Part shown: positions 3,305 to 35,851 of the stretch, piece by piece
Position numbering within the stretch: position 1 is the first letter of the stretch
Layout of the letters: each line of letters starts with the position of its first letter
Virus genome (UHGV): UHGV-0135983
Direction: 5' to 3' (one strand)
DNA from: a virus
DNA: 35,851 nucleotides
Program-made: the position numbers and the translations under genes
Notes under the pieces: generated by a model
What the model was told of the DNA's origin: nothing
What the model saw: only the letters and a program-made list of their open reading frames with translations
Databases searched by the model: none

Positions 3305-3321
3305 ATGGGGAACTCCGGCGG

Positions 3322-4932
3322 CTAATAATCTACGGCGACCATGTGATCGCCATCGTTTGGTTGCCAATGTTCCCGCGCCTGTGCGGTCGGAATCCCGACC
3401 AATTTACCTATACGTACCGGAGTTGAGCTGATAGCACCGGAGCCGGAGTCGATAAAGTCATCGGGCTGATTAGTCAGCGCCGGGTTAAAGTCTCGCATCT
3501 GGTCGTACATTGGGCCGTCGAGCACGTCGGTGTGCGCCCAAAGGAACCGCGACGACAGCGGCGCTTCGAAGGCATCGAGGATGCGTTTCTGTTTATTGGT
3601 CACGCTGAATTCTTCCCGGACGCCGCAACCTGTACCCTTCAACGCCTGAATCAGCAATTTGCCGGCGAAGCTGCCCGGGCCGTTCACCTCGACGCAAATC
3701 AGGGGGATCTGATACTTCAACACCAGCTCTTTAATCTGCATCACCTGACCGCCGGTGATTTTGTCGTTGTCGTCAAATTCTGCCAGTTCGCCCGTAAGCC
3801 CCTGGCAAACATGCCAGTACAGATGCCCGCGCGCGTCGGTGAAAATCAGAGAGAACGCCGAGGCGTCGGCCTTAACTTTGCCGGTGGCCACATCCCACCA
3901 GGCGACAGCACCAACAATTTGCGTCTGGCCAAGCCACATCGAACAGGAGCGGTTCGCGTATCGGATTTCAGGCTGAACGTTGTATTCTCGGATACGGTCA
4001 GGATCAAGACGAACCTCGCCAACCGGTTTACTGTGCAGCTGGTACTGACTGTCCCATTCGTTAATTGTGCGAGTCTCGCGGCGGCGCTTTGTCATTTCCT
4101 CCGGAGTGAATCTTTCCGGCCATTCACAATCGGCGTAACAGTCAACCGTGGTACCGGGAGCCTCGGCAAACTCGATACCATCATCGTTAAGACGATAATC
4201 AACACCTTCAACGAGCAGTCGCGCGCCAATGTGAATACCGACGAAAACATATTCAGGCCGGAACGGTAACGAGTAACGGCTAGCGGTAGCCTGTTTTTCC
4301 TCGATGCGAAATTCTTTGCCGAATAGTTTGATGGTCAGACAGTCGGCGCCCATAGATTCAACCTCATCGTAAAGGCTATCGTGGGTATGCGGCGTGCCGA
4401 TAAACAGCTTTCGCCCGCCGGGGACAAGAATGTGTGTCTGTTCACCCAGACGATAACGCAGCTTTTCCCGCGCCTCCGGCGTCTGGATATTCCGGGGCAC
4501 TTCTACGTCATCGTTCTGACATTCATCGGCACGGGCCGAGGTGACGTTAGAGAGGATCCCCTTTGCGTACATGCTGCCGTTACGCATATCCAGCGAGCCG
4601 TTAACCCACCATTGCTCAACGGTTCCCTGTCCGTCGGGTAGCATACCTTTGGTCAGCGGATGATTGCGTAAAACGTTCTGCGTATCGCGGCTGGTTTTGT
4701 ACGCGGTGCCGTCAGCTTCAGACTGGTGAAGAATGCGGTACTGGCGGTTCTGGTAATATCGCCATGCGTTATACACCGCCAGAATGGTGGATTTTCCGAA
4801 GCCACGGAAACAGCGAAGCACCGCGAGATCCCCGCGGTGTTCCAGCCAGTGGCAGGCTCGATAATGGCAGTCGGGAACCTCCCACCCCATCCGCTCCGCC
4901 CATATGATGAAAAAGGCGACGAATGAAATCAT
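3322..4932 (-). CDS. terminase large subunit (putative)
   Basis: 536 aa; Walker A-like RGFGKSTILA near N-terminus, acidic Walker B-like ADECQNDD; sits between a small putative TerS and the tail fiber. Confidence 0.6.
   Translation of the reverse strand: MISFVAFFIIWAERMGWEVPDCHYRACHWLEHRGDLAVLRCFRGFGKSTILAVYNAWRYYQNRQYRILHQSEADGTAYKTSRDTQNVLRNHPLTKGMLPDGQGTVEQWWVNGSLDMRNGSMYAKGILSNVTSARADECQNDDVEVPRNIQTPEAREKLRYRLGEQTHILVPGGRKLFIGTPHTHDSLYDEVESMGADCLTIKLFGKEFRIEEKQATASRYSLPFRPEYVFVGIHIGARLLVEGVDYRLNDDGIEFAEAPGTTVDCYADCEWPERFTPEEMTKRRRETRTINEWDSQYQLHSKPVGEVRLDPDRIREYNVQPEIRYANRSCSMWLGQTQIVGAVAWWDVATGKVKADASAFSLIFTDARGHLYWHVCQGLTGELAEFDDNDKITGGQVMQIKELVLKYQIPLICVEVNGPGSFAGKLLIQALKGTGCGVREEFSVTNKQKRILDAFEAPLSSRFLWAHTDVLDGPMYDQMRDFNPALTNQPDDFIDSGSGAISSTPVRIGKLVGIPTAQAREHWQPNDGDHMVAVDY
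3385..3402 (-). promoter_or_regulatory. conserved late-junction element copy 2 (GGTCGGAATCCCGACCAA), inside terminase 3' end, upstream of tail fiber
   Basis: Same invariant 11-mer; lies within the last ~27 codons of the upstream CDS, 84 nt before the fiber ATG at 3304. Confidence 0.5.
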
Positions 4933-5842: not shown

Positions 5843-8733
5843 CGCATACCGGGATCGACCTGGTTAATCAGCGGCGCAATCCAGAACAGATTATTACCGG
5901 GTAACAGCGTACGCACGTTATGCAGCACACGGTCGCCGGCGTCGCCATTCAGCACGCCGGCGGTTACATCTGTAACGGTATCCAGCAGGCCAAAGGTTGG
6001 CCCCAGAGCAGAACCGATAAAGCCGCGGCTGGCGTAACGGGACTGCGTACCGGTGCCGAGCAATGGCCCTAGCCCTACCATCCCGCCGGATGCCTTTTCA
6101 GCCATGTTGTTATATTCCATCAGTGGACCGAGGATACCAGAACGGTCGATGCCCTCGAGAACCATCTTCTGCGGGGTCAAATCAACTTCCCGGCCATTAG
6201 CCGCCTGCTTAAGCGCATAGGTCAAAGAGCCCAGGCCAATCTGGAAGGCGGTGCCGTAATAGAACTGCGCGGTACCTTCCTGCAGGCCGCCGAGCGTTGC
6301 GCGATTATAGGATGCCGTAGCAAAAGACTTAAACTGGAATACGGTTTTCCCCAGCGGGGTACTAGCCCACAGCGGCGTATCACCGATCCCCGGCGTGATA
6401 ACTGTATTGTTTACGTCTTTCAGTACCGCGGATTGCAGCAAACCGGCGGCGTACTGGTCATCCCATTTTTCGAAATTGCCGATATGCCAACCCTGAATAA
6501 CTTCGCCGTGCTTCTGAAATTCTCGCTGGATGCGTTCGGCCATCTTCTCATTGATGCCGAGTTTTGCCAGGCGCTTCGCAGGGAACGCGCCGGACAGAAT
6601 ACCGTCGGACGTGATCATGCCATTCACCGATTTGTTCATATCGTCAAAGTGGCCCATCATGGTCAACTTGCCGAACACATCGGTAATACGTTCCATGCCA
6701 GCTTCTGCAGCTGTCGTACGTGAAGAGCTATCGACCAGATCCCCCATCGTACGCGCGCGGGTATGCAGTATGGTTTCAAGTCCAACGGCCATTTTCTTCT
6801 GATCCGCCCGGCTGGCGAGGTAAGCCGGCGAGCGGGTAATCAGTGCGCCATATCCACGCATGGTATTGCTGAAGCCGTTAACCATCATGCCGCGCGCCAG
6901 ATCCGGGATAGCGGATACCGTCATGCCACCGAGTTTTGTTACAAAGTTGGCGCTACGCAGGAAAGCACCGGCGCGGACGAAAAATGATGATGGGTCATCC
7001 GGCATACCGTAGGTACCAACGAGGCGATCGCGGAGCGCCAGAATATCGCGCAGGTCGGCTTCGCGCGCCTTCGCCAGCTTTTCCTGTTCTGCCGGGCGTA
7101 AACGCATCAGCGCGTCGTATTCGTCCTGGATGGCGGCGAGCTGCGAATCCAGCGACTTATTGCCAAAGGTGCGGGTTAATTCGATTTCTGCTGAGGCTTC
7201 ACGAATATGACGCTGCAGGACGTAGTTAGCATCGCTCTCCAGATAATCTTTCATCAGGCGATCGGGAACGCTCAACGTACGCGATTTTGTGCTACCCGGC
7301 GCTTTCACCATAAAGACGTTGGCGAACTCCTGCGGAATTTTGGCCCCGACAATACGGTTGATAGTGGTATCTGCGGCAATTTCGGCATCTTCGCGGGACA
7401 TGGTTTTTTCACCGCGTGACCACCAGTCAACCAGCATGTTGCGGAATTTATCGCGCTCGCTAACGATTTTCCCTACCTTGTACACGCGTGGGAAATAGCT
7501 GGTCTGTCCCATCGCTTTCAGTTCGGCATCCGGCGGAAGTAAACCCAGTTCCTGCTGTGCCGTCTTCACACGATTGATGACCGTACGCATTGCCTGTGCC
7601 GCTTCCTGCACTTTCGCATTAACGTGCACGTCACCGTTGCGCAGCGCCTCGCCAACCTGTTCACGGAAGGCCGTATAACCCAGATCGCCGCCTTCGGCTT
7701 TGTACTGGGTGTATGCCTGCTTATTCGCAGTAACGACGGCCGCCTCTTCACGGCGCCAGCCACGTACGCGCGTCTCAGCTGCAACCGGCGTTTCAATACC
7801 GCGCAGGTTGCCTTCCAGCGTGAAGTTATTCTCTGCAAGTTCCAGCGCTGTCCGGCGCGCTTCTTTTGATGGGGATTCCATCAGGCGGGTGATCGGCGTC
7901 AGATAGCTACCGGCTTTTTTAGCCAGCTTGCCTAGTGGGCCGCCAGACACCGGTGTGAGATCATCCAGCGTAGCTTCGCGGATACGCATGGCGCCGACGC
8001 TGCCACCATTCGGTAAAGTATCCGCCAGGGCATCAGCTGCGTTGTTAATCGTTGGCGAGGCGTTCATATTATCGAGCGCCTCCGCCACTTCACGGGTGGC
8101 CGCATTTCTTACCGACGGGGTGATCATCGCGCCAGCAGTGGCAAATACACCGCTGAGAAGTGCGCCGGCAGTAATGTGTGCGGCGCTCTCCCTGGCTGTT
8201 CTGGTGTACTGCTCGTTATTGAGCGCAACCTCGCTAAGTGCGGTACCGGCAGCGCCAATAGCAACCTGAGAACCAATACGCGCAGCCAAGCTTCCCTGCG
8301 CACCAGGAATAAACATCGATGCGACCGTGACAGGGTCGATAATTCCGGCGGCGATACTAGCCAAAGTTCCTTCAGCGCCTGTTTCAGACAGCACCCGGCG
8401 GTCTTCGTTTTCATCGTCTATCTGGTTTTTAATCCAGGCGGTTTCCTCTGGGGATTTTGAATCCGCAAAGGCGGATCCCCATTGTTCGTACCCCTTTAGT
8501 TCGTTTTTATCAGAATAAGGGTTATAACCGTCCGCCGGTTCGAATTGTTTAGCCGGGCGGAACATTCCGGCCAGCAGGTTATTCTGACGAAAAGCGGCAT
8601 CCCATACAGACGGTTGCTGTTGCAGCGGTTCCGGGTTAGTTCCTTTAGGCAGAGATACATCAAAACCAGTTGGCTCCTGAAGAGCATTATCCATTACGCT
8701 TAGCGGTTCGTCAGATTGTGGGTAGAAAGGCAT
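5839..8733 (-). CDS. internal virion / ejection protein (T7 gp15/gp16-like, large)
   Basis: 964 aa, directly follows the SLT-domain protein with overlapping stop/start; position and size as in T7-type core proteins. Confidence 0.55.
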   Translation of the reverse strand: MPFYPQSDEPLSVMDNALQEPTGFDVSLPKGTNPEPLQQQPSVWDAAFRQNNLLAGMFRPAKQFEPADGYNPYSDKNELKGYEQWGSAFADSKSPEETAWIKNQIDDENEDRRVLSETGAEGTLASIAAGIIDPVTVASMFIPGAQGSLAARIGSQVAIGAAGTALSEVALNNEQYTRTARESAAHITAGALLSGVFATAGAMITPSVRNAATREVAEALDNMNASPTINNAADALADTLPNGGSVGAMRIREATLDDLTPVSGGPLGKLAKKAGSYLTPITRLMESPSKEARRTALELAENNFTLEGNLRGIETPVAAETRVRGWRREEAAVVTANKQAYTQYKAEGGDLGYTAFREQVGEALRNGDVHVNAKVQEAAQAMRTVINRVKTAQQELGLLPPDAELKAMGQTSYFPRVYKVGKIVSERDKFRNMLVDWWSRGEKTMSREDAEIAADTTINRIVGAKIPQEFANVFMVKAPGSTKSRTLSVPDRLMKDYLESDANYVLQRHIREASAEIELTRTFGNKSLDSQLAAIQDEYDALMRLRPAEQEKLAKAREADLRDILALRDRLVGTYGMPDDPSSFFVRAGAFLRSANFVTKLGGMTVSAIPDLARGMMVNGFSNTMRGYGALITRSPAYLASRADQKKMAVGLETILHTRARTMGDLVDSSSRTTAAEAGMERITDVFGKLTMMGHFDDMNKSVNGMITSDGILSGAFPAKRLAKLGINEKMAERIQREFQKHGEVIQGWHIGNFEKWDDQYAAGLLQSAVLKDVNNTVITPGIGDTPLWASTPLGKTVFQFKSFATASYNRATLGGLQEGTAQFYYGTAFQIGLGSLTYALKQAANGREVDLTPQKMVLEGIDRSGILGPLMEYNNMAEKASGGMVGLGPLLGTGTQSRYASRGFIGSALGPTFGLLDTVTDVTAGVLNGDAGDRVLHNVRTLLPGNNLFWIAPLINQVDPGMR

Positions 8734-16109: not shown

Positions 16110-16994
16110 TTACCCTCTGGGTTCTTTTATCCTATAACCTGTGCCAGGCATGAATTCATCAATAACTCTTGCCGCGTGACCTATAACTCGAAACGCTGAG
16201 CGTGCTTCTTCATCGGTAATTTTAGTCGCTTTAGTCGGGTCATAATCAGGAGTTTGGTCATCGTCAAAATGTACTCGATAGCCAAATTTTGATATTTCTC
16301 TGAAAATGGAACTAACTGACCTATCAATAGTTGCCATAGTGTCCATTAATCTATTTTTATCCTCCTCAATTTTATTTTTTATTTTCTCATAAGGGCCTAG
16401 CTCATCTACTAAATCTTTAAGAGCATCCGACTTAGAATTTATTTCACCTTCAATTTCATTAAGTTTCCCTTCCGCCAACTCAAGCTTCGAACTTAAAATA
16501 TTAAATTGTTCTTCAGCTTCTTCATATGACTTCTTAATGCTCTCGATATCATGTGTAACTTTAGTAACCTTGAGTTCTTCTTCTGCATTCCTTTTTGCAA
16601 ACAGAGATGTTTGATAAGCTAGTGCGCTATCTGCTTTAGCTGTGTATTCAGCAATGATTTCACGAGCCTCACTCTCAGATTTTGCCCTTTTGATATCGTT
16701 ACCATCAGCGATTTTTTGCGCGCATCTTTGAAAAAAACTCACAGCATGACTAGCATAAGGAAAAAGAACGGCAATAATAAAACCCAAAAGGATAGGAGCA
16801 ACTACAGAATACCAAAAAATACATGGTTCACTTTTCACTTTAATGATTCTATCTTGTAGTTCTCCACTACCCATTAAAACTATCAATAAACTATCCCAGT
16901 TAAACCCCAGCCATGAGAGGACTATGAACCCGAAAAGAGGAGTGTTTATTCTTTGAATTAAAGTTTTCTTTACCGCATCAGCTAATTCGTCCAT
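16110..16994 (-). CDS. membrane-anchored coiled-coil protein (AT-rich moron between scaffold and capsid)
   Basis: 294 aa; two predicted TM helices then a long Glu/Lys-rich coiled-coil region; visibly AT-rich; AAGGG RBS; candidate promoter and an upstream terminator. Confidence 0.6.
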   Translation of the reverse strand: MDELADAVKKTLIQRINTPLFGFIVLSWLGFNWDSLLIVLMGSGELQDRIIKVKSEPCIFWYSVVAPILLGFIIAVLFPYASHAVSFFQRCAQKIADGNDIKRAKSESEAREIIAEYTAKADSALAYQTSLFAKRNAEEELKVTKVTHDIESIKKSYEEAEEQFNILSSKLELAEGKLNEIEGEINSKSDALKDLVDELGPYEKIKNKIEEDKNRLMDTMATIDRSVSSIFREISKFGYRVHFDDDQTPDYDPTKATKITDEEARSAFRVIGHAARVIDEFMPGTGYRIKEPRG

Positions 16995-22261: not shown

Positions 22262-22295
22262 CAAAAGAAAACCGCCATTTCTGGCGGTTCTGTTT
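22262..22295 (-). terminator. intrinsic terminator (hairpin with T-runs on both strands)
   Basis: ACCGCCATTTCTGGCGGT hairpin; - strand followed by TTTTCTTTTG, + strand by TTCTGTTTTAT. Confidence 0.5.
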
Positions 22296-22314: not shown

Positions 22315-22653
22315 CTATGCTGACAATTTAGTTTCGTGCCACCCTCGCGTTACCCAGCATTTCGAATCACCAGCGCACGGGCAGGAGGTGATCGGCAGCG
22401 ACTCACCGCATTTTCTACACAGACGTTTGCTGATCGATTTGATATGGCCACTAAGCCGCGCATCATCCTGACGGATCAGCATAGATATATACTCGGCCAG
22501 TTCGTACGGTTCACGGCCCGGGCGCCGGGCGGCGCAGTTACGCGCCAGCATGTCCATTTCCTGCGCATCGAGAACCAGCTCAATTTTCCGGTTGCCGGCG
22601 GCAGATTGCCGCGCCCTCTGCGCGGCTTTACGTTCTGCGGATGATTTAGCCAT
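22315..22653 (-). CDS. hypothetical protein, RHH-like N-terminus and Cys-rich C-terminus
   Basis: 112 aa; KIELVLDAQEMDMLARN strand-helix pattern; C-terminal CRKCG...CPCAGDSKC. Confidence 0.45.
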   Translation of the reverse strand: MAKSSAERKAAQRARQSAAGNRKIELVLDAQEMDMLARNCAARRPGREPYELAEYISMLIRQDDARLSGHIKSISKRLCRKCGESLPITSCPCAGDSKCWVTRGWHETKLSA

Positions 22654-22686
22654 AAATCACCTTCTCGCAGCACTTACAGCATTTTG

Positions 22687-23520
22687 TCATGCTGCACGCT
22701 CCTGTTTCTGTTGTGCTGCAGGGTTAAGCCAGAGGCATTCAGTACGGACTTTCGTACCGCGCCCGGCACTGATGCGCGATGCTTTCTCGGTCTTCGCCCA
22801 GCCGGATAGCATGTCGTTGTAGACATCAGTGTCGTAACCGCTAATCATCACCATGCCTTTCATCGTTCTGGACACAGCGAGCAATTGCTCATGCCCTTCA
22901 ACGGTCATTTCATGGTTGTAATAACGATTTTTCTGCACTCGTGTTTCCGGCATATATGGCGGATCGATGTAATGCAGCGTCGTTTCTGCGTCGTGGGCGC
23001 GCATTACCGCCAGAGCGTCTTTGTTCTCGATGATGACTCCTTGAAGGCGCTGACAGACAACAGCGAGATTAGCCGGGTAACGCTCCCATAGATGCGCCGC
23101 CGTAGCGTATTTGCGTTTGCTGTCGCTGCGGAAGCCGGATTGACCGCCGATACCTGCGGCAGAGCCGAACCCCATACAGGCACGAACCACCATGCGGCGG
23201 GCGCGTTCGATAGGGTCAGTGGCTGGTTGCTGAGCGTGACAGAACTCATCGCGTGAATACGGGGTCAGGCAACAGGCATCCTGCAGGCGCTGGTTTAATT
23301 CAGGGTCGCGCAATACACGAAACAGGTTCACCACCTCGCCGTCGAGATCGTTGTACACCTCTGAATAGCTACGCGCTTTTTGTAGCAATACGCCAGCAGC
23401 CCCGCCGAACGGTTCGACATAGCAGACGTGTTCCGGCATCTGCTCGATAATCCAGTGTGCCAGTCGGAATTTCCCGCCGTGATATCTGATTACAGGATGC
23501 CTGATTTTTTTTTCAATCAT
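22687..23520 (-). CDS. Dam-type DNA N6-adenine methyltransferase
   Basis: 277 aa; YHGGK, FGGAAGV (AdoMet motif I) and DPPY (motif IV); A9 homopolymer in codons 3-6. Confidence 0.85.
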   Translation of the reverse strand: MIEKKIRHPVIRYHGGKFRLAHWIIEQMPEHVCYVEPFGGAAGVLLQKARSYSEVYNDLDGEVVNLFRVLRDPELNQRLQDACCLTPYSRDEFCHAQQPATDPIERARRMVVRACMGFGSAAGIGGQSGFRSDSKRKYATAAHLWERYPANLAVVCQRLQGVIIENKDALAVMRAHDAETTLHYIDPPYMPETRVQKNRYYNHEMTVEGHEQLLAVSRTMKGMVMISGYDTDVYNDMLSGWAKTEKASRISAGRGTKVRTECLWLNPAAQQKQERAA

Positions 23521-23699
23521 TGATCATCACCCCATTCGTCATAAAAAAAATCATCAACTCGCTTATATGCCTCGTAAGCGGCTTCAATCTCCATTTCTGT
23601 GATATCGAATGATTTACCATTTAATTCGACGATTAATTCCAGCGCGTCGCCCCAATCTTCGAGCGACGCGGTTCTTTTGGTTGCGCTAAAATCTGCCAT
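23517..23699 (-). CDS. hypothetical small acidic protein
   Basis: 60 aa, coupled between the two methyltransferase genes. Confidence 0.4.
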   Translation of the reverse strand: MADFSATKRTASLEDWGDALELIVELNGKSFDITEMEIEAAYEAYKRVDDFFYDEWGDDQ

Positions 23700-24290
23700 C
23701 TATGCTACCTCCCCGATATATTCTGCAATGCCCGGCAGCAGCGCCACCGCTGGCGATTCACACTGGTTGCCCCACACGTCGAAACCATGCGACGACTGGC
23801 GGGCGAATAACTCAATACGCGGTACATCGCCCAGCAGCTGCACCAGCTTTTCGCGCACGATATCCGGTTTGCGCGAATGCTCCAGACGCGGGGCCGTGAA
23901 TGACTGAACGATCCCGGCATCCAGCCGGGCGGGTAATTTCCCCTGCACAGCGAAAAGGCAATCTTCACTGTTCGCCCTGGTCATATGGCCCATTCCTATG
24001 GCCAGTTTGTCGGTCTGCCGGCTGTAGCATTTGTTCCACGTAAAGCCTTTCATGGTCATCAGGCGGAAGCCCCACGCCTCGACTACTCGCAACGCCTCCA
24101 GCGGCTGAGTCGGTACCCACCACATAGCCAGCAGGCAGTTTTCAGCGGCCAGTTCCCAGACCGGAAGACGGCAGATATCGAGCACAGTCATGGTCTGGTA
24201 TTTATGCCCGACGCCACGCTCGCCATCTTTGGCTTTATCGCGGTACGTCCAGGGCGGATCGCAATAAATTAAAGTGTATTTTTCATTCAT
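23700..24290 (-). CDS. MT-A70-family DNA N6-adenine methyltransferase
   Basis: 196 aa; IYCDPPW catalytic motif; start overlaps upstream stop as TAATG. Confidence 0.8.
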   Translation of the reverse strand: MNEKYTLIYCDPPWTYRDKAKDGERGVGHKYQTMTVLDICRLPVWELAAENCLLAMWWVPTQPLEALRVVEAWGFRLMTMKGFTWNKCYSRQTDKLAIGMGHMTRANSEDCLFAVQGKLPARLDAGIVQSFTAPRLEHSRKPDIVREKLVQLLGDVPRIELFARQSSHGFDVWGNQCESPAVALLPGIAEYIGEVA

Positions 24291-24817
24291 TATTTCGAAT
24301 CCTTAATAATATTGGCAACACGATTAAATGATTCATACGTTTCAATGTTTCTTGAGAAATTAAGGAGCCTTGTCTTACCAGATGGATAAACCCGACCTGA
24401 ATAAGTCTTGTTCTGCGTTCTAAATTCAATTGTTTGTTTTATAGAACCAATATTTTTATCACTAACAATCTCACTAGCAGCCATAAAACCCACTTTTTCC
24501 TCTTCAATTACAACGAACGCGTAAAAGTCACAGGAACCATAATTAGTTGCTCTGCAAGTTCCTTTCCCTGTTCTGGTGCTGAACCGAAAAACATTCTTCG
24601 ACTTTCCATAGTCGCGCATACACAAGGTTGTTCTGACTTGCCCTCTTAATAAATACTCGCCAGATTGAACAACTATATCGTATGGCAATCCTTGGTCTGA
24701 GGGGAAACATATAAAACCCTGCTTACTGAGTTTAAATATGGCGTAATACTCACCACATTTGCCAAGTTCTAACTCGCTCGAAAAATCGCTTATGTTTATA
24801 TCAATAGTCCCATTCAC
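24290..24817 (-). CDS. AT-rich hypothetical protein with Hjc/PD-(D/E)xK-like N-terminal pattern
   Basis: 175 aa; G-x-x-GE...LxxxGF...YDIVV...QVR spacing resembles archaeal-type Holliday-junction-resolvase fold with ExK replaced by QVR; GC well below flanks. Confidence 0.5.
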   Translation of the reverse strand: MNGTIDINISDFSSELELGKCGEYYAIFKLSKQGFICFPSDQGLPYDIVVQSGEYLLRGQVRTTLCMRDYGKSKNVFRFSTRTGKGTCRATNYGSCDFYAFVVIEEEKVGFMAASEIVSDKNIGSIKQTIEFRTQNKTYSGRVYPSGKTRLLNFSRNIETYESFNRVANIIKDSK

Positions 24818-24984
24818 GCCAGCACCCCGCTACTGCGGAGATATTCCAGCGCCCACTGCGCAACCTCACATCCAGCCCATATCAGAGCGATAATGACTAT
24901 CCAGCCAACCACGTTTGCACTGAGTACAAACAGCATCAGCGTCCTGCGGCTGCAATGCATAAAATCAGGTGTTGAAAATTTCAT
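24814..24984 (-). CDS. small membrane protein
   Basis: Start at MKFSTPDF overlapping upstream stop as ATGA; one hydrophobic helix LMLFVLSANVVGWIVIIALIWA. Confidence 0.4.
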   Translation of the reverse strand: MKFSTPDFMHCSRRTLMLFVLSANVVGWIVIIALIWAGCEVAQWALEYLRSSGVLA

Positions 24985-25214
24985 GTCCGCTTCTCCCGCC
25001 AAAAATTTAATCGTTCTTTGAAAAACTCTCGGTAGCTTTCCGGCGTCGCTGCAATCTGCTCAACGATGGCCTGTCGAGTAACTTTCTTCTCGAACAGCTG
25101 GCGTATGAGTGCCGAGGCGCGCATGTCGTAGTGCTCTTTGATCTGGCACTCCTGCGGCCATTTGGCGCGATTGAGCGGTAAGCCGGGCGGCAAGTAATCT
25201 GATTGCCCGGCCAT
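24981..25214 (-). CDS. hypothetical small protein
   Basis: 77 aa ORF with AGAGGG RBS. Confidence 0.4.
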   Translation of the reverse strand: MAGQSDYLPPGLPLNRAKWPQECQIKEHYDMRASALIRQLFEKKVTRQAIVEQIAATPESYREFFKERLNFWREKRT

Positions 25215-25217
25215 GCC

Positions 25218-25886
25218 TTATGCCCTCTTGTTCTTCGCTGACTCGATGTAATAACGGGGATCAACGCTGTTAAGCGTGAAGTGAACCACCGGCATATCGT
25301 CGTGACGGGTGATACCCACGTAATTCGACATGAACATGCCGAACACGCGATCGTGAAGTTCTTTAATCGTCACCTGACAATCTGGATAGTGCTTCTGGAT
25401 TAATGCCAGGATGCCCTGGTAAGAAAGCGTTTTGCCTTTCATCACGGCTACCAGCTGCTGCGCGGTGACGCTCCCGGCGTCCTGCTGTTCGTCGCTGGCC
25501 TGCAATGGGCGGATACTCTCCAGCACCAGACGGTGACGGCCAATACTGCCGACGCGCTGGCCCGTTTTTTTATCGAAATGCTCATTGGAGCCAGCAGACC
25601 AGACGGTCGCACCTTCGCTAAGGCGAACGCTTTTTTCACCTCTGGAATAAATCACGGTGCCGATGTGGGTTTTACGCCTGCGGCCGGAAACCGTAGGGGC
25701 GATAATTTCACGCTTAATCGGTTTTTGCGGGGTGATGCCGGGTACAGGGGCCGGACGTGGCGCCGCTACGAACACGGAACGGCTACGGGCGCGCGCGCCG
25801 GCGTTCATGCGCCAGAGAATAACGGGGAGCCAGTTGCAGCCATCATCCGGTTTTACTGGTTTTGGGTAATTTAAATTCGTGGTCAT
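25218..25886 (-). CDS. hypothetical protein (early region)
   Basis: 222 aa; start codon directly preceded by CCGAGGAAAGACCA. Confidence 0.5.
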   Translation of the reverse strand: MTTNLNYPKPVKPDDGCNWLPVILWRMNAGARARSRSVFVAAPRPAPVPGITPQKPIKREIIAPTVSGRRRKTHIGTVIYSRGEKSVRLSEGATVWSAGSNEHFDKKTGQRVGSIGRHRLVLESIRPLQASDEQQDAGSVTAQQLVAVMKGKTLSYQGILALIQKHYPDCQVTIKELHDRVFGMFMSNYVGITRHDDMPVVHFTLNSVDPRYYIESAKNKRA

Positions 25887-25924
25887 TGGTCTTTCCTCGG
25901 TTAAATCGCGCTGGTCAGGCGCGG

Positions 25925-27331
25925 TTAAAATGCATCGGTATTGAATTTCTCAGAGTATTTACGGGGTTGTTTCCGGGGTTTCGCGGCCTCCAGTTGGATA
26001 CGTGTTTTCTCTTTGCCAACATGCTGATCCATTGACAGAAAGTGTCCGTTTTTAAATTCCTGATAAATAATTGCTCCTGCGGCGCTGAAGCGGCTTTTAC
26101 CCAGGATAATTTCAGCGACGCCAGCCGCCGGGCTTTCCGGGTTGTAAACCTCATCGCGGTACAGAAACATGATGCTGTCGGCGTCCTGCTCAATGGATCC
26201 GGAATCACGCAGGTCTGACATGACCGGGCGACGCTGAGCCGCAGGGCGGGAATCGACGGCGCGGGAAAGCTGGCTAAGCGCGAACGTCGGCGTATGCAGG
26301 CGCATAGCCATAGTTTTTAGGTTTCGGGATATGTGGGCGATCGCAAGGTCGTTACGCTCTGCCTTCGGTTTTTTAATCAGGCCAACGTAATCGACAACGA
26401 TCATCGCCAGATGCGGATACCGGCGCTTATGCGTTTCGGCAACGGCGCGGATTTGCTCAATCGTCAGATCGGTAGCATCAACGATCCAGATATCGCGCCC
26501 GTTCATGGTCTCCATGGCCGCTGTAAAGCGCGCCCAGTCCTCGTCCTGCATATCGAGGGGATTACGCAGGCGTGACACTGACATGTTTCCAGAACCCGCC
26601 AGAGAGCGTTCTACGATTTGCGCAGCGGCCATTTCCATGCTGAATATCAACGCGCCACCGCCGGCAGCGGTAACACCATCGACAATCTTCAGCGCAAATT
26701 CTGTTTTACCCATACCCGGACGCCCAGCGACGACAATCAAATCCTGCAGGTTAATTCCGCCGGTCGCATCGTCCAGTTCCTCGATCCCGGTTTTCAGGTT
26801 TCGGGTGCCCTCTTCGCCGTCCATGCGCTTCTGCATGGTTTCCATGTACACCGGCAATAATTCGCTCATGTGTACCGGCTGCACGTCGCCAGTGTCGCCG
26901 GTCATGTCCAGCAGCTGCGCAACGGCAGTTTCGACAACCTGATCGCGCTGTTCCTGGTTTATCGCATCACGAATACCATCCGCACCATCCTGCAGTAATT
27001 GCGCGATGGTTCTGCTTCGCCAGGCCTTAACCATTTTTTTGGCGTAGCCTTTGAGATTGACAATCGATGTCGGGAATTTGCAAATATCGGCGAGATTGGC
27101 CAGCGTCCCCTGTCCGCCAATGGCTTCGCTAATGTACATCATGTCAATTAAGCCGCCGCTCAAGGCCTGCGCTTTGATCACACCGTAAATCTGCCTGTAG
27201 TATGCGACGCTGAAAGCTTCGCTCGGAGTGCTGGCAATCACATCAAAGGCGTCTGGCGTGGCGCCACCGTTCATCAGGCAGCCAAGAACCAGACATTCCA
27301 GCTCCTGAGTGGAATACATCATCTGCATCAT
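25925..27331 (-). CDS. replicative DNA helicase (DnaB family)
   Basis: 468 aa; Walker A GRPGMGKTEFALK; DnaB-like C-terminal blocks; overlaps initiator stop. Confidence 0.85.
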   Translation of the reverse strand: MMQMMYSTQELECLVLGCLMNGGATPDAFDVIASTPSEAFSVAYYRQIYGVIKAQALSGGLIDMMYISEAIGGQGTLANLADICKFPTSIVNLKGYAKKMVKAWRSRTIAQLLQDGADGIRDAINQEQRDQVVETAVAQLLDMTGDTGDVQPVHMSELLPVYMETMQKRMDGEEGTRNLKTGIEELDDATGGINLQDLIVVAGRPGMGKTEFALKIVDGVTAAGGGALIFSMEMAAAQIVERSLAGSGNMSVSRLRNPLDMQDEDWARFTAAMETMNGRDIWIVDATDLTIEQIRAVAETHKRRYPHLAMIVVDYVGLIKKPKAERNDLAIAHISRNLKTMAMRLHTPTFALSQLSRAVDSRPAAQRRPVMSDLRDSGSIEQDADSIMFLYRDEVYNPESPAAGVAEIILGKSRFSAAGAIIYQEFKNGHFLSMDQHVGKEKTRIQLEAAKPRKQPRKYSEKFNTDAF

Positions 27332-28317
27332 AAAGCGCCCTCCCTGGTCTTACGCAATGTCTCTGGTTTCATCAGATAGTCAAAGCTGGCGCGCCATCCG
27401 CCATTTTCACCAAAGTAAAAATCGGAGGCGTCAGCGCGGAATTTTTCGAAATAGCCCAGAAATGCGCCCGTGGTTTTGTTTTTCATATGGGCGGCCAGAC
27501 GGGTGATCATCCGGCGGCGGTCTGTGTCCAGTTCAGCAGCAGGCAGAACGTCAGCAAAAATTTCGTTGTAGCCGTTCATAACGGCTTCCGGATCAATATC
27601 GGTTTCGGTCACCGCCCATGCTTCAGCGTCAGCGAGATAACCATCAAAGCGGTTTACCCGGCAGATGTTCGCTGGCTTCGGCAGGCTATCGCCACGGCGG
27701 CGCCATGTGGCCAGCACCCAGCGGATAACTAACTGCAATTCGTCCAGGGTGTACCCTTCCCGGGTGGTGGTCGGCGTCAGCATCATCACAAACGGTTTCA
27801 GGTCACGGCAGCGGGTACCGGTTTGCTCGTTGTAAAATTCCAGCGCTTTTTTAGCATCAGAATTAATTTTTTCATCGCCTTCCCCCGTCTGGGGGTTAGG
27901 GGGATCTTTAGGTTCTATGACTGGTTCAAAAGAGTGACTGGTTCTGGTGCCGCCACACGGCATAGGGGCTATGCTTTTTGGCGGCATACCTGTGCTTTCT
28001 GACGGCATAGGGGCTATGCTTTTTGGCGGCATAGGGTTATCAAGTTTCATACAGTACAAATTCGACGCGTTACCCTTCCCGTTTTTTACGCCCGGGCGAT
28101 TTTCTTTCACCAGCAGGCCCATGGAAATTAACGCATCGATATGGTCACGCACCGCGCTTTTGCTGCACTCGCAGTGATCCGCAATATGTTTGTAAGACGG
28201 CCAGCATTCGCCGTAATCATTGGCGTTATCAGCCAGTTTGATCAGCACCAGTTTTCGAATCGGGTTTCCGGTCTTGATTGCCATTGCTTTGGCCATAAGC
28301 GTCATACTCATAGTCAA
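27328..28317 (-). CDS. replication initiation protein (HTH N-terminus, lambda O-like role)
   Basis: 329 aa; N-terminal HTH-like region; internal peptide repeat PMPPKSIAPMP x2 coinciding with DNA iterons; conserved phage replication C-terminal region. Confidence 0.7.
   Translation of the reverse strand: MTMSMTLMAKAMAIKTGNPIRKLVLIKLADNANDYGECWPSYKHIADHCECSKSAVRDHIDALISMGLLVKENRPGVKNGKGNASNLYCMKLDNPMPPKSIAPMPSESTGMPPKSIAPMPCGGTRTSHSFEPVIEPKDPPNPQTGEGDEKINSDAKKALEFYNEQTGTRCRDLKPFVMMLTPTTTREGYTLDELQLVIRWVLATWRRRGDSLPKPANICRVNRFDGYLADAEAWAVTETDIDPEAVMNGYNEIFADVLPAAELDTDRRRMITRLAAHMKNKTTGAFLGYFEKFRADASDFYFGENGGWRASFDYLMKPETLRKTREGAL
27958..28037. repeat. iteron-like direct repeats inside the initiator gene (candidate ori)
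   Basis: CGGCATA core at 27958, 27982, 28003, 28027 (21-24 bp spacing); two ~31-bp units CGGCATAGGGGCTATGCTTTTTGGCGGCATA. Confidence 0.6.
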
Positions 28318-29330: not shown

Positions 29331-29744
29331 ATGGACATGAAAAAATTGACCTTTAACGATCGCATTACATCGAGACGGAAAGAGCTTGGCTTAACCCAAC
29401 AGCAGCTCGCCGATGCCGTTGGCATATCTGGCGTAAGCGTCTACAAGTGGGAAGCAGGTATTAACACCCCAAAAGGGCAAAATCTGTTTTCTCTCGCTGA
29501 GGCTCTTCGTTGCTCTCCGACATGGTTACTTAACGGAACCGATAGCGATGAACCGTTGAAGGCGGAAGACCTTTTACCTCGGTTAGATGATCGCCAAAAG
29601 CTATTGCTTGATCTTTTTGACTCCCTACCTGAATCAGAAAAAGATAGACACATCAATGAGTTGAAAGATAAAGTTGACGGATTCCAGCGATTGTTTGATG
29701 AGTTACTTTTGGTAAAAAAGAAAAAAAACACTCCAAAAAAATAA
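29331..29744 (+). CDS. CI/RacR-like repressor (HTH_XRE, no S24 peptidase domain)
   Basis: 137 aa; HTH LGLTQQQLADAVGISGVSVYKWEAG; possibly leaderless from the ATG at 29337. Confidence 0.75.
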   Translation: MDMKKLTFNDRITSRRKELGLTQQQLADAVGISGVSVYKWEAGINTPKGQNLFSLAEALRCSPTWLLNGTDSDEPLKAEDLLPRLDDRQKLLLDLFDSLPESEKDRHINELKDKVDGFQRLFDELLLVKKKKNTPKK

Positions 29745-31430: not shown

Positions 31431-33650
31431 ATGACCATCTACAACGGCTTATTTGAGCCAAAGAAATCGGCGATTAAAGACTGCGGCGCCGTGCAGCTGG
31501 CGATCGCCATCGATGCGCCAAACAAAAAAGTGGCCGAAAGCATTATGACCGGCAAACTCTGGGAATCATACCCGGCCAATGGTGACAACTATTTCAAACC
31601 GAAACTGTGGGAACACGTTGAAGGCCAGCCGCTGCCGACCGTTGGCCAGTTCGATGAGTCATTCGCCCAGCAGCATACTTTTGACGGTGAAAAATGGGTT
31701 TCTACTGCGCAGGATAGCGCTTCCGGAAGCAGTGCAGGTTTACCTGCCGACGATGAAGTGATCGACCTGATGACCGTTTCCGCAGAGGAACGCTTTGCTG
31801 CCGTCCTGCTTTTTAGCACCGCTGCGATTGATGGCCATCTTTATTCTCAGGTTGTGGATTATCTGGATAACCTGAAAAACCACGATGGCGAATTTGAAGA
31901 GGAAGATCGCTTTAACTTTAATGTGCTGTGCGCCCTACAAAATAACTTCCCGGTTCAAAGCATGCATGTGGAAGGTCTGAATAACCTTGTTCAGGGGATT
32001 TTCTCCCACTTTGAAAACCAGACGCCAGGCAAAGCGGCTATCTCTCAGTTCGTTAAACGCTGGCTTGAGAATCCGGGCAAGCGCGACGAACTGGCCCCCG
32101 GCGTATATAAAAATACCGCTCTCAGCACCAGCACCAGCACCAGCACCGATGATAAAACACCCGTGGTAATTTCTAAGCGGGGTTATAAACACACATATGC
32201 AACGCTGGATCAGGAGATCGCTACCGCCCTTCTCCCGCTGGCGCCTGATGCGCCGGTACTATCCGGAAACCTTCTGGACGCTAAGAAGATGATTGCCGAT
32301 GACCGGGAAGATTTTAAACGCTGGTCTGCATCGCTGCACACCACTCCGCAGATACTCAAATATGACCGCGCCAGCATCTTCGGTGTAGTGCAGAACGTAC
32401 CGGCGAAAGATACCTACCATTTCCCTGACAGCCTGCGCCGCCATATCGATTCATGGCTGGAGGCCAACGGCCGCTTTGAAGAAACCGATACAGGATCCGT
32501 TAAACAGACAGAGGCAACGCAAAATATCGCCTCAAACGTGGGCGAAAAAGCGGAAGTGCCGCAGACGGTTGTAACCGATAACCAAGCGAAACAGGCGCGT
32601 GAGGCGCTCAACGATATGGGCTATGGCGTATATGCATCTGGTGAAGGTGCGGAACCGGAAGATAAGTTAAGCGTTAAGGCTGAGAAAATAGCAGATGAAG
32701 CTGCTCGTTTGTCTCGTGATATTAACCTCAAAGATCGCATGCCAGATGCCGGAGATTTGATTCCAGCAATTCAACCAAATGAAAATATAGCCTCAAAAAA
32801 AATTGAATCATATCTATCTGAATTGAATGACGACCAGGCCAAAGCAAACCTTAGCGTCTGGAATCGCGTCCAGCGCACAGATCCGGCCTTCGTCGAAAAG
32901 AACAGTTTCGGCGCAGGGCTTCACTCAATCCGGGCGCAGTACATGCTGATGCGCGCAACGGAAGTTCTCGGAATGGAAGGAACCGGTTGGGGCGTTGATA
33001 TCAAAGAAGAGCGCATAGATCGAGGTGTGCCGCTTATGGAGCCAATACAGGACCAATCAGGAAAAATAATTGGCCAGAAACCGGTAAGGGACGGGGATGG
33101 CTCATTATTCTGTTTATCCGTACATACAATTCGGATTGAACTCTGGTACCTGCGAGACGGAAAGAAGGGGCGCATTCCGGCCTATGGACATACGGATTAC
33201 ATCACCAAGGGTGGTGATGGTGCATTAAAAATGGAGAAAGAAGCCGCCAAAAAATCACTGACTGACGCTACAACCAAAGCACTATCCCATCTCGGATTTG
33301 GTGCAGACGTGTACATGAACATGCATAACGACAACGAATACACTTCAAAATTGAATGAGATATTCGAAATCAAAAAAGCCAGCGAAAGCATAGAAGATAT
33401 AGTGCGACTTCGTCAGGAATTAGACGACGATCTTACCTCCGTTGCTGAAACCCTATCTACTGGCGTGACTGTTAACGAAGTTGAAAAGGTTTTTGGCACG
33501 ATAGCCCGAAAACTCGAAGTTCACCGCAAGGATGCAGAATCAAAAGGCGATACACAGCGCTCTCGGTACCTCAGTGGCCGGTTGCGCCGCCTGACTGAAA
33601 TCAAAAATGGACGTCTCGCCGAACTAAATAAATCCGAGGAGAAAGCATAA
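31431..33650 (+). CDS. Erf-family single-strand annealing protein with ~480-aa N-terminal extension
   Basis: 739 aa; C-terminal region has Erf-like blocks NSFGAGLHSIRAQYM and KALSHLGFGADVY (cf. P22 Erf NSFGKYKYR / LNGLFGIDD); start preceded by GAGGAAAGACCA; (AGCACC)x4 encodes an STSTSTST linker. Confidence 0.6.
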   Translation: MTIYNGLFEPKKSAIKDCGAVQLAIAIDAPNKKVAESIMTGKLWESYPANGDNYFKPKLWEHVEGQPLPTVGQFDESFAQQHTFDGEKWVSTAQDSASGSSAGLPADDEVIDLMTVSAEERFAAVLLFSTAAIDGHLYSQVVDYLDNLKNHDGEFEEEDRFNFNVLCALQNNFPVQSMHVEGLNNLVQGIFSHFENQTPGKAAISQFVKRWLENPGKRDELAPGVYKNTALSTSTSTSTDDKTPVVISKRGYKHTYATLDQEIATALLPLAPDAPVLSGNLLDAKKMIADDREDFKRWSASLHTTPQILKYDRASIFGVVQNVPAKDTYHFPDSLRRHIDSWLEANGRFEETDTGSVKQTEATQNIASNVGEKAEVPQTVVTDNQAKQAREALNDMGYGVYASGEGAEPEDKLSVKAEKIADEAARLSRDINLKDRMPDAGDLIPAIQPNENIASKKIESYLSELNDDQAKANLSVWNRVQRTDPAFVEKNSFGAGLHSIRAQYMLMRATEVLGMEGTGWGVDIKEERIDRGVPLMEPIQDQSGKIIGQKPVRDGDGSLFCLSVHTIRIELWYLRDGKKGRIPAYGHTDYITKGGDGALKMEKEAAKKSLTDATTKALSHLGFGADVYMNMHNDNEYTSKLNEIFEIKKASESIEDIVRLRQELDDDLTSVAETLSTGVTVNEVEKVFGTIARKLEVHRKDAESKGDTQRSRYLSGRLRRLTEIKNGRLAELNKSEEKA

Positions 33651-34210
33651 TGACTTCCACTACTGCTATTGCCATCGCCGCGGACTATCAGAACCTGCTG
33701 CAACTGCTGGAAAGCTCTGATGACCTGACTCCGGAAATGATCGCCGATACCCTCGAAGGCATGGAAGGAGAGCTAGCCGATAAACTGGATTCCATCATGG
33801 TTATCGCACGTAATAACCTCGGCAATGCCAGCACCTGCGATGATGAAATAAAACGCTTGGCCGAACGTAAGAAGTTCTTTGAGAATAAGGATAAGGCTCT
33901 GCGTAAGTATATTCTCTCCTGCCTGATGGCGGCCGGGCTGGATAAGCTGAAAACGGCAAAAAACACTTTCACTGCTCGCAAAGGTAGCGTAAGCGTTGTG
34001 ATTGATAATACCGATCTTCTTCCCGATGAACTGGTGACTACCCAGGTTGTTATCGCGCCCGATAAAAAGGCCATCAAGGAAGCGATTGAATCAGCACAGG
34101 CAGCAGCGGCCCAGATTACCGCTGACGGCGGAGAGATACCGGAAGAACTGTTAAACCCAGTGCCGGGCGCTCACCTTGAGATTGGCGAACGTTCATTACA
34201 GGTGCGCTGA
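33650..34210 (+). CDS. Gam-like / Sipho_Gp157-like protein (putative host-nuclease inhibitor)
   Basis: 186 aa; helical N-terminus, central LKTAKNTFTARKGSVSVVID resembles Mu Gam-type pattern; start overlaps Erf-like stop. Confidence 0.45.
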   Translation: MTSTTAIAIAADYQNLLQLLESSDDLTPEMIADTLEGMEGELADKLDSIMVIARNNLGNASTCDDEIKRLAERKKFFENKDKALRKYILSCLMAAGLDKLKTAKNTFTARKGSVSVVIDNTDLLPDELVTTQVVIAPDKKAIKEAIESAQAAAAQITADGGEIPEELLNPVPGAHLEIGERSLQVR

Positions 34211-34831: not shown

Positions 34832-35851
34832 ATGGGAAGGAGAAGAAAAGATCCAACAGATAATAAATTGCCACCTCGTGTTTCAAAAACCAAAACTCGG
34901 TATTACTACAAACCCACAGCACGAGAAACTATAACGCTAGGGCCAATAACTCTTTCAATGTCTGCATTGTGGAAACGTTATGAGGAAGAAAGACGAAATC
35001 ACTCAGGAGTAATGACGTTTGAAAAGCTCTGGGGAATGTTTTTAAAGAGCGCCTATTACACCGAACTCGCAATTCGTACCCAAAAAGATTATTTGCAACA
35101 TCAAAAAAAATTATTAGTCGTTTTTGGAAAAATGAAAGCTGATCTTATCAAGCCCGAAGAAGTTCGCCAGTTTATGGATCGACGTGGCCTAAAAAGCAAA
35201 AATCAGGCTAATCAGGAAATGAGTAGTATGTCGAGGGTGTTTCGATGGGGTTTTGAACGTGGTTATGTAAAAGGCAACCCATGTGCCGGGGTTAGTAAGT
35301 TTTCGTTAAAGGCACGTGAACAATATATTACCGATGAAGATTATCTGGTTATCTATAAAAATGCTGATTCAGTTGTGCGGGCTGCAATGGAAATATCATA
35401 CCTGTGTGCTGCCCGCCAGGCTGACGTGTTGGGATTGTGCTGGATGCAGATAACAGACAAAGGGATATTCATTCAACAGGGTAAGACGGGGAAAAAGCAG
35501 ATCAAGGTCTGGACCCCTCGCCTTCATCAAGCCTTCGTTACGGCACAAATAGATTGCCCCAAACTGTCTGCTAACGGACTAGTGATCTACAACAACGATA
35601 AAGGCCAGTTTATCCGTAAGACGTTCAATAATCGCTGGCTTAAAGCCGTACGCGCAGCACAAAACGAATTGGGGCGACAACTGGACTATACATTTCACGA
35701 TATCAAAGCGAAGGGGATTTCAGATTTCGAGGGTAGCAGTAAGGACAAGCAGATGTTCAGTGGCCACAAGACGGAAAGTCAGGTTCTGGTGTATGACAGA
35801 AAGGTACAAATAAGCCCTACTTTGAATCTACCCGTAATTGGCGGTGATTGA
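34832..35851 (+). CDS. int: tyrosine integrase (lambda Int family)
   Basis: 339 aa; N-terminal arm-binding-like region, C-terminal catalytic region with conserved R...H-x-x-R...Y arrangement; stop is the final codon of the window. Confidence 0.9.
   Translation: MGRRRKDPTDNKLPPRVSKTKTRYYYKPTARETITLGPITLSMSALWKRYEEERRNHSGVMTFEKLWGMFLKSAYYTELAIRTQKDYLQHQKKLLVVFGKMKADLIKPEEVRQFMDRRGLKSKNQANQEMSSMSRVFRWGFERGYVKGNPCAGVSKFSLKAREQYITDEDYLVIYKNADSVVRAAMEISYLCAARQADVLGLCWMQITDKGIFIQQGKTGKKQIKVWTPRLHQAFVTAQIDCPKLSANGLVIYNNDKGQFIRKTFNNRWLKAVRAAQNELGRQLDYTFHDIKAKGISDFEGSSKDKQMFSGHKTESQVLVYDRKVQISPTLNLPVIGGD

Follow-up and report, generated by a model that had tools for sequence, protein, structure and literature searches.

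An I-Ssp6803I-family nuclease gene at the start of a phage MT-A70 methylase gene: a candidate homing-endonuclease-like selfish gene

Introduction

The virus genome UHGV-0135983, a stretch of 35,851 nucleotides (nt) which is called the window here at its full length, is a temperate prophage of the Klebsiella type with a lambdoid organisation, and carries a nuclease gene of 175 amino acids (aa) directly upstream of an MT-A70 adenine methylase gene. Probably, if far from certainly, this 175-aa gene of the I-Ssp6803I (PDDEXK_5) family is a selfish gene, free-standing and homing-endonuclease-like, which was inserted at the start of the MT-A70 gene, a reading to which a precise 527-nt insertion, a methylase 5' end replaced together with it and duplicated methylase ends in other clades all lead. 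The original prediction, which was made from the letters of the window, had placed this gene in front of the MT-A70 gene and a Dam-type methylase gene, at coordinates that are all confirmed on the minus strand (Table 1), and had suggested that they could form a restriction-modification-like or anti-restriction module.

Insertion of the nuclease at the MT-A70 gene

The 196-aa MT-A70 protein matches the PFAM model PF05063 with 81.5 bits (cut-off of 23.9) along the complete profile (positions 1-172 of 172); the domain covers residues 5-176, the DPPW motif is found at residues 11-14, and its relatives in the PDB are MT-A70 family proteins and METTL3. Judged by these matches, it is a member of PF05063 and a beta-class N6-adenine DNA methyltransferase. 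At the DNA level its gene shares 76-78% identity with adenine methylases that are annotated in Klebsiella, Enterobacter and Salmonella phages, and enterobacterial phages commonly carry it as a gene on its own. Among the 80 closest MT-A70 genes of IMG/VR, which share 82-98% protein identity with it, none has the nuclease beside it, and in ST512-KPC3phi13.3, in Mulock and in an E. coli prophage the methylase is preceded by nothing or by another gene.

The empty-site allele is found in L129, which is about 96% identical to the window over 26500..24812 and 24289..23701 and does not have the nuclease. The block that is absent from L129 carries the sequence TGAAT at both of its ends in the window (24812-24816 and 24285-24289). 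In L129, the stop codon of a 62-aa open reading frame (ORF) overlaps the GTG start of MT-A70 (GCGTGAATAACAAATAC...), and the GTGAAT that opens the methylase there opens the nuclease in the window. The empty junction, in which the 62-aa ORF or a DUF1317 gene is joined to MT-A70 in L129 or ST512-KPC3phi13.3, reads ...TATGCGGATCCGCC.... Between L007 and ST512-KPC3phi13.3 (L111), 510 nt stand in place of 4 nt and the flanks are 95-97% identical.

The methylase gene itself differs next to the insert. In codons 2-10, 8 of 27 nucleotides differ between the window and L129, against 14 of 558 over the remainder of the gene (p = 1.4e-6), and L007 and ST512-KPC3phi13.3 differ at 10 of 27 positions in these codons against 25 of 564 elsewhere (p = 6e-7). 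The tract of the first ten codons, which is poor in guanine and cytosine (GC; Table 1), is presumed to be a co-converted or “immune” tract that was replaced together with the insert. Its right-hand boundary lies at the codons of motif IV (DPPW), whose neighbourhood is inferred to be the target of the nuclease. The residue before DPPW also distinguishes the alleles, since nuclease-bearing ones read IY(C/S)DPPW and nearly all nuclease-free ones among the 80 loci read IYADPPW. Thus, presence or absence at one site in near-identical genomes and flanking changes of the co-conversion type, which are features of homing genes, are both found here, and the gene is a free-standing ORF instead of residing in a self-splicing intron, the classical homing form. 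The absence of the nuclease from all 80 methylase loci, the precise insertion, the co-replaced 5' end and the lack of any PADLOC match of the nuclease all speak against the restriction-modification or anti-restriction module of the original prediction.

Other proteins are found in the slot upstream of MT-A70. In the E. coli KMi006 prophage (L113) it holds a 236-aa phrog_874 protein (3555-4265), for which no PFAM match was obtained; it is the same slot that the nuclease occupies in L007, with flanks 96-98% identical, which makes this protein a third alternative occupant. In phage BUCT709 (L115), which is filed under Stenotrophomonas and has about 83% DNA identity to the window prophage across the replication genes, a ParB-like gene precedes MT-A70 (2464-3057, minus strand) in the slot that holds the nuclease in the window. 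Motif IV of the methylases of L115 and L144 is EPPW, not DPPW, and these two enzymes are perhaps catalytically impaired.

Family, fold and active site of the nuclease

The 175-aa protein matches phrog_24524 (7e-87) and scores 25.9 bits against the PFAM model PDDEXK_5 (PF11645), just below the cut-off of 26.1; its relatives score 30-63 bits, and precomputed matches to this model are found on many of its homologs. The homolog set (n=36) ranges in identity from 97% (Klebsiella pneumoniae) down to about 30%. A profile of 35 aligned sequences, which are 34 homologs and the window protein, matches PDB entry 2OST, I-Ssp6803I from the tRNA-fMet group I intron of Synechocystis, with an E-value of 4.9e-5 and spans the strands of D47 and of Q60-V-K/R62. 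The search of the PDB with the single sequence gave nothing useful. The AlphaFold model of the protein has a pLDDT (predicted local distance difference test) of 86.8, and its top Foldseek match is also 2OST (E = 5.3e-7, TM-scores of 0.62 by query and 0.72 by target), followed by the SPARDA DREN nuclease and then by Hjc (E of about 6e-4 to 1e-2). By profile and by model, the predicted PD-(D/E)XK nuclease fold and the membership in the PDDEXK_5/I-Ssp6803I family appear to be real. The original prediction had read an Hjc/PD-(D/E)xK-like pattern in this gene and had proposed structure prediction as a check, and both lead to a nuclease fold. No restriction-enzyme or defence model of PADLOC matched the protein, and the only NCBIfam model that appeared was TIGR02307, of an RNA ligase family, with 16 bits against a cut-off of 197 (E = 0.005).

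The putative active site is built by Glu23, Asp47, Gln60 and Arg62 (Table 1). Glu23, Asp47 and Gln60 are invariant in 111 of 111 family sequences, and residue 62 is a lysine in 70 of them and an arginine in 41, which are the enterobacterial clade and one other sequence. The catalytic residues of I-Ssp6803I, which were located through a HMMER alignment, are taken by us to be a glutamate in helix 1, an aspartate in strand 2 and Q-x-K in strand 3. Since Q-x-K is the norm of the family, as in I-Ssp6803I (QVK), only the change of lysine to arginine is peculiar in the QVR of the window; the original prediction, which had called this motif non-canonical, was right about the unusual Arg62 and not about the glutamine that stands in place of glutamate. 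Inside the QVR clade the ratio of nonsynonymous to synonymous substitution rates (dN/dS) is 0.03-0.17, so the nuclease protein is kept by purifying selection.

The family comprises 1,467 clusters at 50% identity with E <= 1e-3, and 710 with E <= 1e-10. Some members, P0038, P0043, P0046 and P0047 (about 284-315 aa), have two PDDEXK_5 stretches matched per chain and may be single-chain pseudo-dimers. The proteins of the L060 type have a C-terminal tail that resembles a helix-turn-helix (HTH), by reading of the sequence only. Both traits recall homing endonucleases. The NCBI family name “group I intron-associated” had suggested a group I intron, a hypothesis that was rejected because Rfam matched nothing in the window, nor in 11 related loci where the nuclease has no methylase beside it; the window gene consequently departs from the intron-borne form that is classical for the family.

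Linkage of the nuclease family to DNA methylases

The linkage was examined in 110 loci, which comprise phage KO-TP1, five Klebsiella or metagenome contigs that encode a 97%-identical protein, 80 IMG/VR contigs and 24 GTDB genomes. PFAM, applied to representatives, and local iterative searches served to identify the neighbours, and a strand-specific search served to find the nuclease ORFs. All 110 loci are viral contigs or prophage-like stretches, every context being phage. A DNA methylase lies at most 200 nt from the nuclease, and usually overlaps it, in 101 of the 110 loci, and the other nine loci have no methylase within this distance. Counted by clusters, the linkage is seen in 50 of 56 at 95% identity and in 15 of 18 at 60%. 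The linkage of nuclease and methylase on which the original prediction was founded is thus beyond chance.

The partners differ by clade: MT-A70 genes downstream, N6_N4 genes downstream, ParB-N6_N4 fusions upstream, and occasionally C5 or D12 methylases. Precomputed PFAM matches on Serratia, Pectobacterium and metagenomic contigs, where the pairs are found in the nin region or beside the integrase, confirm independently the order of nuclease and then MT-A70. The protein divergence of the nuclease and that of MT-A70 are correlated (Spearman 0.70). No description of an association between nuclease and methylase in the PDDEXK_5 family was found in the literature, which is not proof that none exists.

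Two diverged proteins, P0115 (666 aa) and P0128 (628 aa), combine a ParB-like N-terminal region with an intact PDDEXK_5 domain and with MT-A70, all within a single reading frame, and the fusion of P0115 was confirmed on contig L201 (4001-6001); motif IV in the MT-A70 domains of both is DPCW. These fusions could reflect an in-frame insertion at the same spot near motif IV or, equally, a cooperation of nuclease and methylase. The fusion gene of L201 adjoins a GcrA-like gene and a 598-aa N6_N4 methylase. Another fusion of 672 aa (L075, 4998-7016), which has an N-terminal PDDEXK_5 domain followed by a glycosyltransferase of family 9 and a TylF-type O-methyltransferase, belongs to the few family members without a DNA methylase neighbour.

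Methylase remnants in other clades

In many phages, members of the family adjoin a beta-class methylase gene at its motif-IV end or at its motif-I end, and several of these loci carry pieces of methylase genes, the kind of scar that a cassette invading such genes would leave. In L060, L069 and L070, a ParB-methylase gene is followed by the nuclease and then by a second, partial methylase C-terminus (the motif I region), which is 63-68% identical to the first copy. L069 and L070/L071, whose methylase cores are unrelated, share at about 92% identity the unit composed of the last ~143 nt of the methylase and of the nuclease. In L044, the N-terminal remnant of a methylase, which breaks off immediately before DPPY, precedes the nuclease and a complete methylase. 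In L083 the adjacent methylase has lost its catalytic core and the nuclease ORF is intact. Between L001 and L016 identity steps down near DPPW, and the synonymous divergence of the nuclease and that of the adjacent methylase disagree in both directions, by which the two genes appear to have had separate histories. Together with the empty sites and the replaced methylase ends, these are hallmarks of homing endonuclease genes of the free-standing kind.

Dam-type gene and its swappable block

The D12-class methylase, which is of the alpha class and Dam-like, matches PF02086 with 76 bits (cut-off of 22), has DPPY at residue 186 (22954-22965) and has many phage relatives. It scores below the cut-offs of the Dam equivalog models (65.3 bits against 114.85 for TIGR00571 and 37.6 against 441 for NF008152), so GATC specificity is not to be assumed. 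The MTase_II models of PADLOC match both this methylase and MT-A70. The 60-aa ORF that precedes the D12 gene matches the C-terminal part of phrog_519 and travels with the Dam gene, forming with it a swappable block.

In comparison with the closest relatives of the window, the Klebsiella prophages L002-L006, homology extends to the end of MT-A70 (23701), breaks off there and starts again at about 22660. Their slot holds a 76-aa ORF (phrog_2044) and a 205-aa HNH_3 endonuclease (7348-7965), and in some of the closest relatives a 660-aa C5 methylase too. L142 has the array of MT-A70, 60-aa ORF, Dam and 112-aa gene without the nuclease. The swap of the Dam block in the closest relatives and the nuclease-free L142 rule out that the three genes are one conserved module, and the tandem of two methylases is therefore a result of phage mosaicism and no unit with the nuclease. 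By their matches, the MT-A70 and D12 enzymes are ordinary phage orphan methylases.

The 76-aa ORF and the HNH_3 gene are also found in L121, L123, L125, L129, L133 and others, at about 2821-3435. The HNH_3 gene is a second homing-endonuclease-like gene that lies one gene away from the same MT-A70.

Gene layout of the window

The nuclease and methylase genes lie in a nin-like stretch of the minus strand, which has the helicase on one side and structural genes on the other (Table 1). The original prediction had described the nuclease gene as AT-rich, and its GC content is indeed 37.3% (34% at third codon positions), against 56.9% in MT-A70 and 54.4% in the Dam-type gene; the 60-aa ORF has 42.6%. 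The two methylase families with their DPPW and DPPY motifs are present as described, though not directly in tandem, as the 60-aa ORF between them had been overlooked.

Table 1. Features of the window and their positions
Feature	Position	Strand	Remarks
Integrase	34832-35851
Exonuclease and Mu Gam-like gene	31431-34210
Repressor-type HTH gene	29331-29744
O-like initiator and DnaB helicase	25925-28317
77-aa protein, relative of the DNA polymerase III theta subunit	24981-25214	minus	phrog_1105, 2e-29; the nuclease lies two genes downstream
62-aa ORF, small hydrophobic protein	24814-25002	minus	phrog_2936; upstream of the nuclease
175-aa nuclease ORF	24290-24817	minus	GTG start
Putative active site, E23	24749-24751	minus
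Putative active site, D47	24677-24679	minus
Putative active site, Q60-V-R62	24632-24640	minus
Block absent from L129	24285-24811	minus	527 nt, 37% GC
First ten codons of MT-A70	24261-24290	minus	20% GC; tract stops exactly at the DPPW codons
Motif IV (DPPW) codons, GATCCGCCCTGG	24249-24260	minus	right-hand boundary of the replaced tract
MT-A70 methylase	23700-24290	minus	196 aa
Swappable block, 60-aa ORF and Dam	22663-23699	minus
60-aa ORF	23517-23699	minus	between MT-A70 and the Dam-type gene
D12-class methylase	22687-23520	minus	277 aa
112-aa gene	22315-22653	minus	phrog_536, annotated as “transcriptional regulator”
Terminator-like hairpin	22268-22291		after the 112-aa gene
Capsid gene	further left
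T7-type tail fibre	further left
Head-tail connector/adaptor gene	further left		PF12236; phrog_332

The junctions of these genes are of different kinds. The TGA stop of the 62-aa ORF overlaps the GTG start of the nuclease (GTGA), nuclease and MT-A70 overlap by TAATG, and the 60-aa ORF and the Dam-type gene overlap by ATGA. MT-A70 and the 60-aa ORF abut without overlap (TAG-ATG). The TAATG and ATGA overlaps on which the original prediction founded a co-translated set are thus present, and the nuclease is translationally coupled to the methylase; the set as a whole is not one unit, given the swap of the Dam block in the closest relatives. A 14-codon ORF, MTKCCKCCEKVIYG (22646-22690, minus strand), links the Dam stop, through an ATGA overlap, to the start of the 112-aa gene, which it also overlaps, and its role is perhaps limited to translational coupling.

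A promoter-like site (24289-24318, minus strand) that consists of TTGCCA, an 18-nt spacer and AATAAT, with 10 of 12 matches, lies shortly before the MT-A70 start, within the AT-rich 3' part of the nuclease gene. The number of promoter-like sites across the region is not above chance expectation, and repeats in the region are at chance level only. In the structural module, a 294-aa gene (16110-16994, minus strand) between the capsid gene and a 282-aa gene is also AT-rich (37-42% GC), and PFAM gave no confident match for it. A 727-aa tail fibre or spike (1184-3367, minus strand) has a T7-type N-terminal adaptor and a GDSL/SGNH esterase domain, and could be a deacetylase that acts on capsule or O-antigen.

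Discussion

According to the favoured reading, the nuclease would cut nuclease-free methylase alleles near the conserved motif codons when phages co-infect a cell or recombine with a resident prophage, and repair off the nuclease-bearing allele would copy the nuclease gene together with the adjacent gene end, whose altered codons would render the carrier allele immune to cutting. MT-A70 and Dam would be orphan methylases that presumably shield phage DNA from host restriction; they would be the landing site of the nuclease and not its partners, and the Dam gene would be an independent mosaic block.

I-Ssp6803I, the founding member of the family, is an experimentally proven homing endonuclease (PMC3384342), and its family has been described as a small group of intron-borne enzymes that are mostly cyanobacterial (PMC3384342, PMC3424549). 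The window nuclease probably falls in the same PFAM family, has this enzyme as its best match by profile and by fold, and shares with it the putative “YD ... Q-V-K” active-site strands, the glutamine that replaces the usual acidic residue and a length of about 150-175 aa, at an identity of about 16% in the structural alignment. It differs from I-Ssp6803I in being a free-standing ORF coupled to its neighbours outside any intron, in having arginine at the last catalytic position where I-Ssp6803I has lysine, and in its presumed target, a phage methylase gene instead of a tRNA gene.

Free-standing homing endonucleases are familiar in phages, and those such as Seg and Mob of T4 are GIY-YIG or HNH nucleases. 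The insert of the window resembles these genes because it is intergenic, gene-sized and AT-rich, adjoins a conserved gene, is present or absent between near-identical phages and has a short tract of the neighbouring gene replaced with it, whereas its PD-(D/E)XK fold and its constant tie to one class of neighbours, the DNA methylases, are unusual among them. Compared with phage orphan methylases (epsilon15-like MT-A70 and Dam-like D12), the methylase pair of the window is unusual only in the nuclease insertion and in the altered first ten codons.

Several points weigh against a homing gene. The target of the nuclease in the phage members is itself inferred, and the arginine in place of the usual catalytic lysine in the clade of the window could weaken or abolish cleavage. 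A homing endonuclease that is driven by sequence is not obviously expected to stay with several methylase families for so long. The linkage in 101 of 110 loci, the translational coupling and the correlated divergence fit a functional partnership as well, and the fusions P0115 and P0128 speak for a physical co-operation of the two proteins. Ordinary homologous recombination of mosaic phages can likewise produce breakpoints at conserved motif codons, and the classical intron arrangement of the family is inapplicable, since there is no group I intron.

A partnership could take the form of a minimal phage-borne restriction-modification-like pair, in which the nuclease cuts host or competitor phage DNA that does not bear the mark of the neighbouring methylase and the methylase shields the DNA of the phage itself; we consider this unlikely. 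It would explain why the nuclease is nearly absent without an adjacent methylase, an asymmetry (the methylase is often alone) that has the pattern of toxin and antidote, and it agrees with the start and stop overlaps of most loci, with partners from several methylase families in both gene orders, with the correlated divergence of both proteins, with natural fusions that resemble fused Type II enzymes and with the structural closeness of I-Ssp6803I to R.PvuII (PMC3384342). As in Type II systems such as PvuII, a small PD-(D/E)XK nuclease gene overlaps a methylase gene and rarely occurs without one. At the same time, no PADLOC model of a restriction enzyme or defence system matches the nuclease, and the methylase is usually alone at the same locus; the mobile unit holds the end of a methylase gene and no whole methylase, and pairs with unrelated cores. 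Beta-class methylases would have their target-recognition domain in the central region, and this region is unrelated between the methylases that adjoin the near-identical nucleases of L069 and L070; a specificity shared by nuclease and methylase is therefore improbable, except in the case of non-specific methylases. The intact nuclease beside the core-deleted methylase of L083, the nine loci without a close methylase and the discordant synonymous divergence of the two genes also count against such a pair, as does the position of the genes in a lytic-cycle operon, where, judged from context, expression in the lysogen is not expected. Dependence on methylation of the restriction kind is thus weakened. 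It is similarly doubtful that the phage PDDEXK_5 nuclease and a small, possibly low-specificity methylase form a widespread and undescribed weapon, gated by methylation, that destroys unmethylated DNA of hosts or rivals; the fusions of ParB, nuclease and MT-A70 would then be a single-chain form of such a methylation-gated nuclease.

The partnership could also be non-selfish and of another kind, the PD-(D/E)XK-fold protein, which may be catalytically weakened in the QVR clade, being an accessory, DNA-binding subunit by which the very small MT-A70 enzyme is recruited or directed, a role which ParB-like proteins or domains would have in other phages. The slot upstream of MT-A70, which holds a ParB-like gene in BUCT709, the 236-aa phrog_874 protein in KMi006 and the nuclease in the window, suggests such a role, and so do the single-chain fusions with ParB and MT-A70, the arginine that is found at a catalytic position despite strong purifying selection, the translational coupling of the two genes and a methylase of 196 aa that barely exceeds a catalytic core and has no obvious target-recognition domain. 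We give it little credence, as Glu23, Asp47 and Gln60, invariant throughout the family, point to retained metal-ion catalysis, most phages have the same methylase without such a neighbour (0 of 80), and the partners include large methylases with DNA-binding domains of their own; nor would it explain the AT-rich composition, the insertion or the remnants of gene ends. It is very improbable that the protein is an Hjc-like Holliday-junction resolvase by which the nin-like region serves phage recombination. In lambdoid phages this region usually holds a resolvase, for example RusA; the scan of the nin-region genes recognised none of the RusA type, and archaeal Hjc shares the core fold and is among the Foldseek matches (E of about 1e-3). 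However, the match to Hjc is weaker than that to I-Ssp6803I, which is the best by structure and by sequence, and the genomic behaviour differs, since closely related phages do not have the gene and a resolvase does not explain the adjacency to methylases throughout the family at differing genome positions.

The branch of the window nuclease would thus consist of free-standing, phage-borne relatives of I-Ssp6803I that stand at the catalytic-motif ends of beta-class methylase genes, an association that is apparently undescribed. Caution is called for in annotation, since a nuclease gene of a prophage may adjoin a methylase gene without the two being a restriction-modification system. If the homing reading is true, the phage members of the I-Ssp6803I family would be mobile genes aimed at the ends of methylase catalytic motifs, would provide a mechanism for the shuffling and spread of anti-restriction methylase genes among temperate phages, and would constitute a pool of compact nucleases with long and diverse targets.

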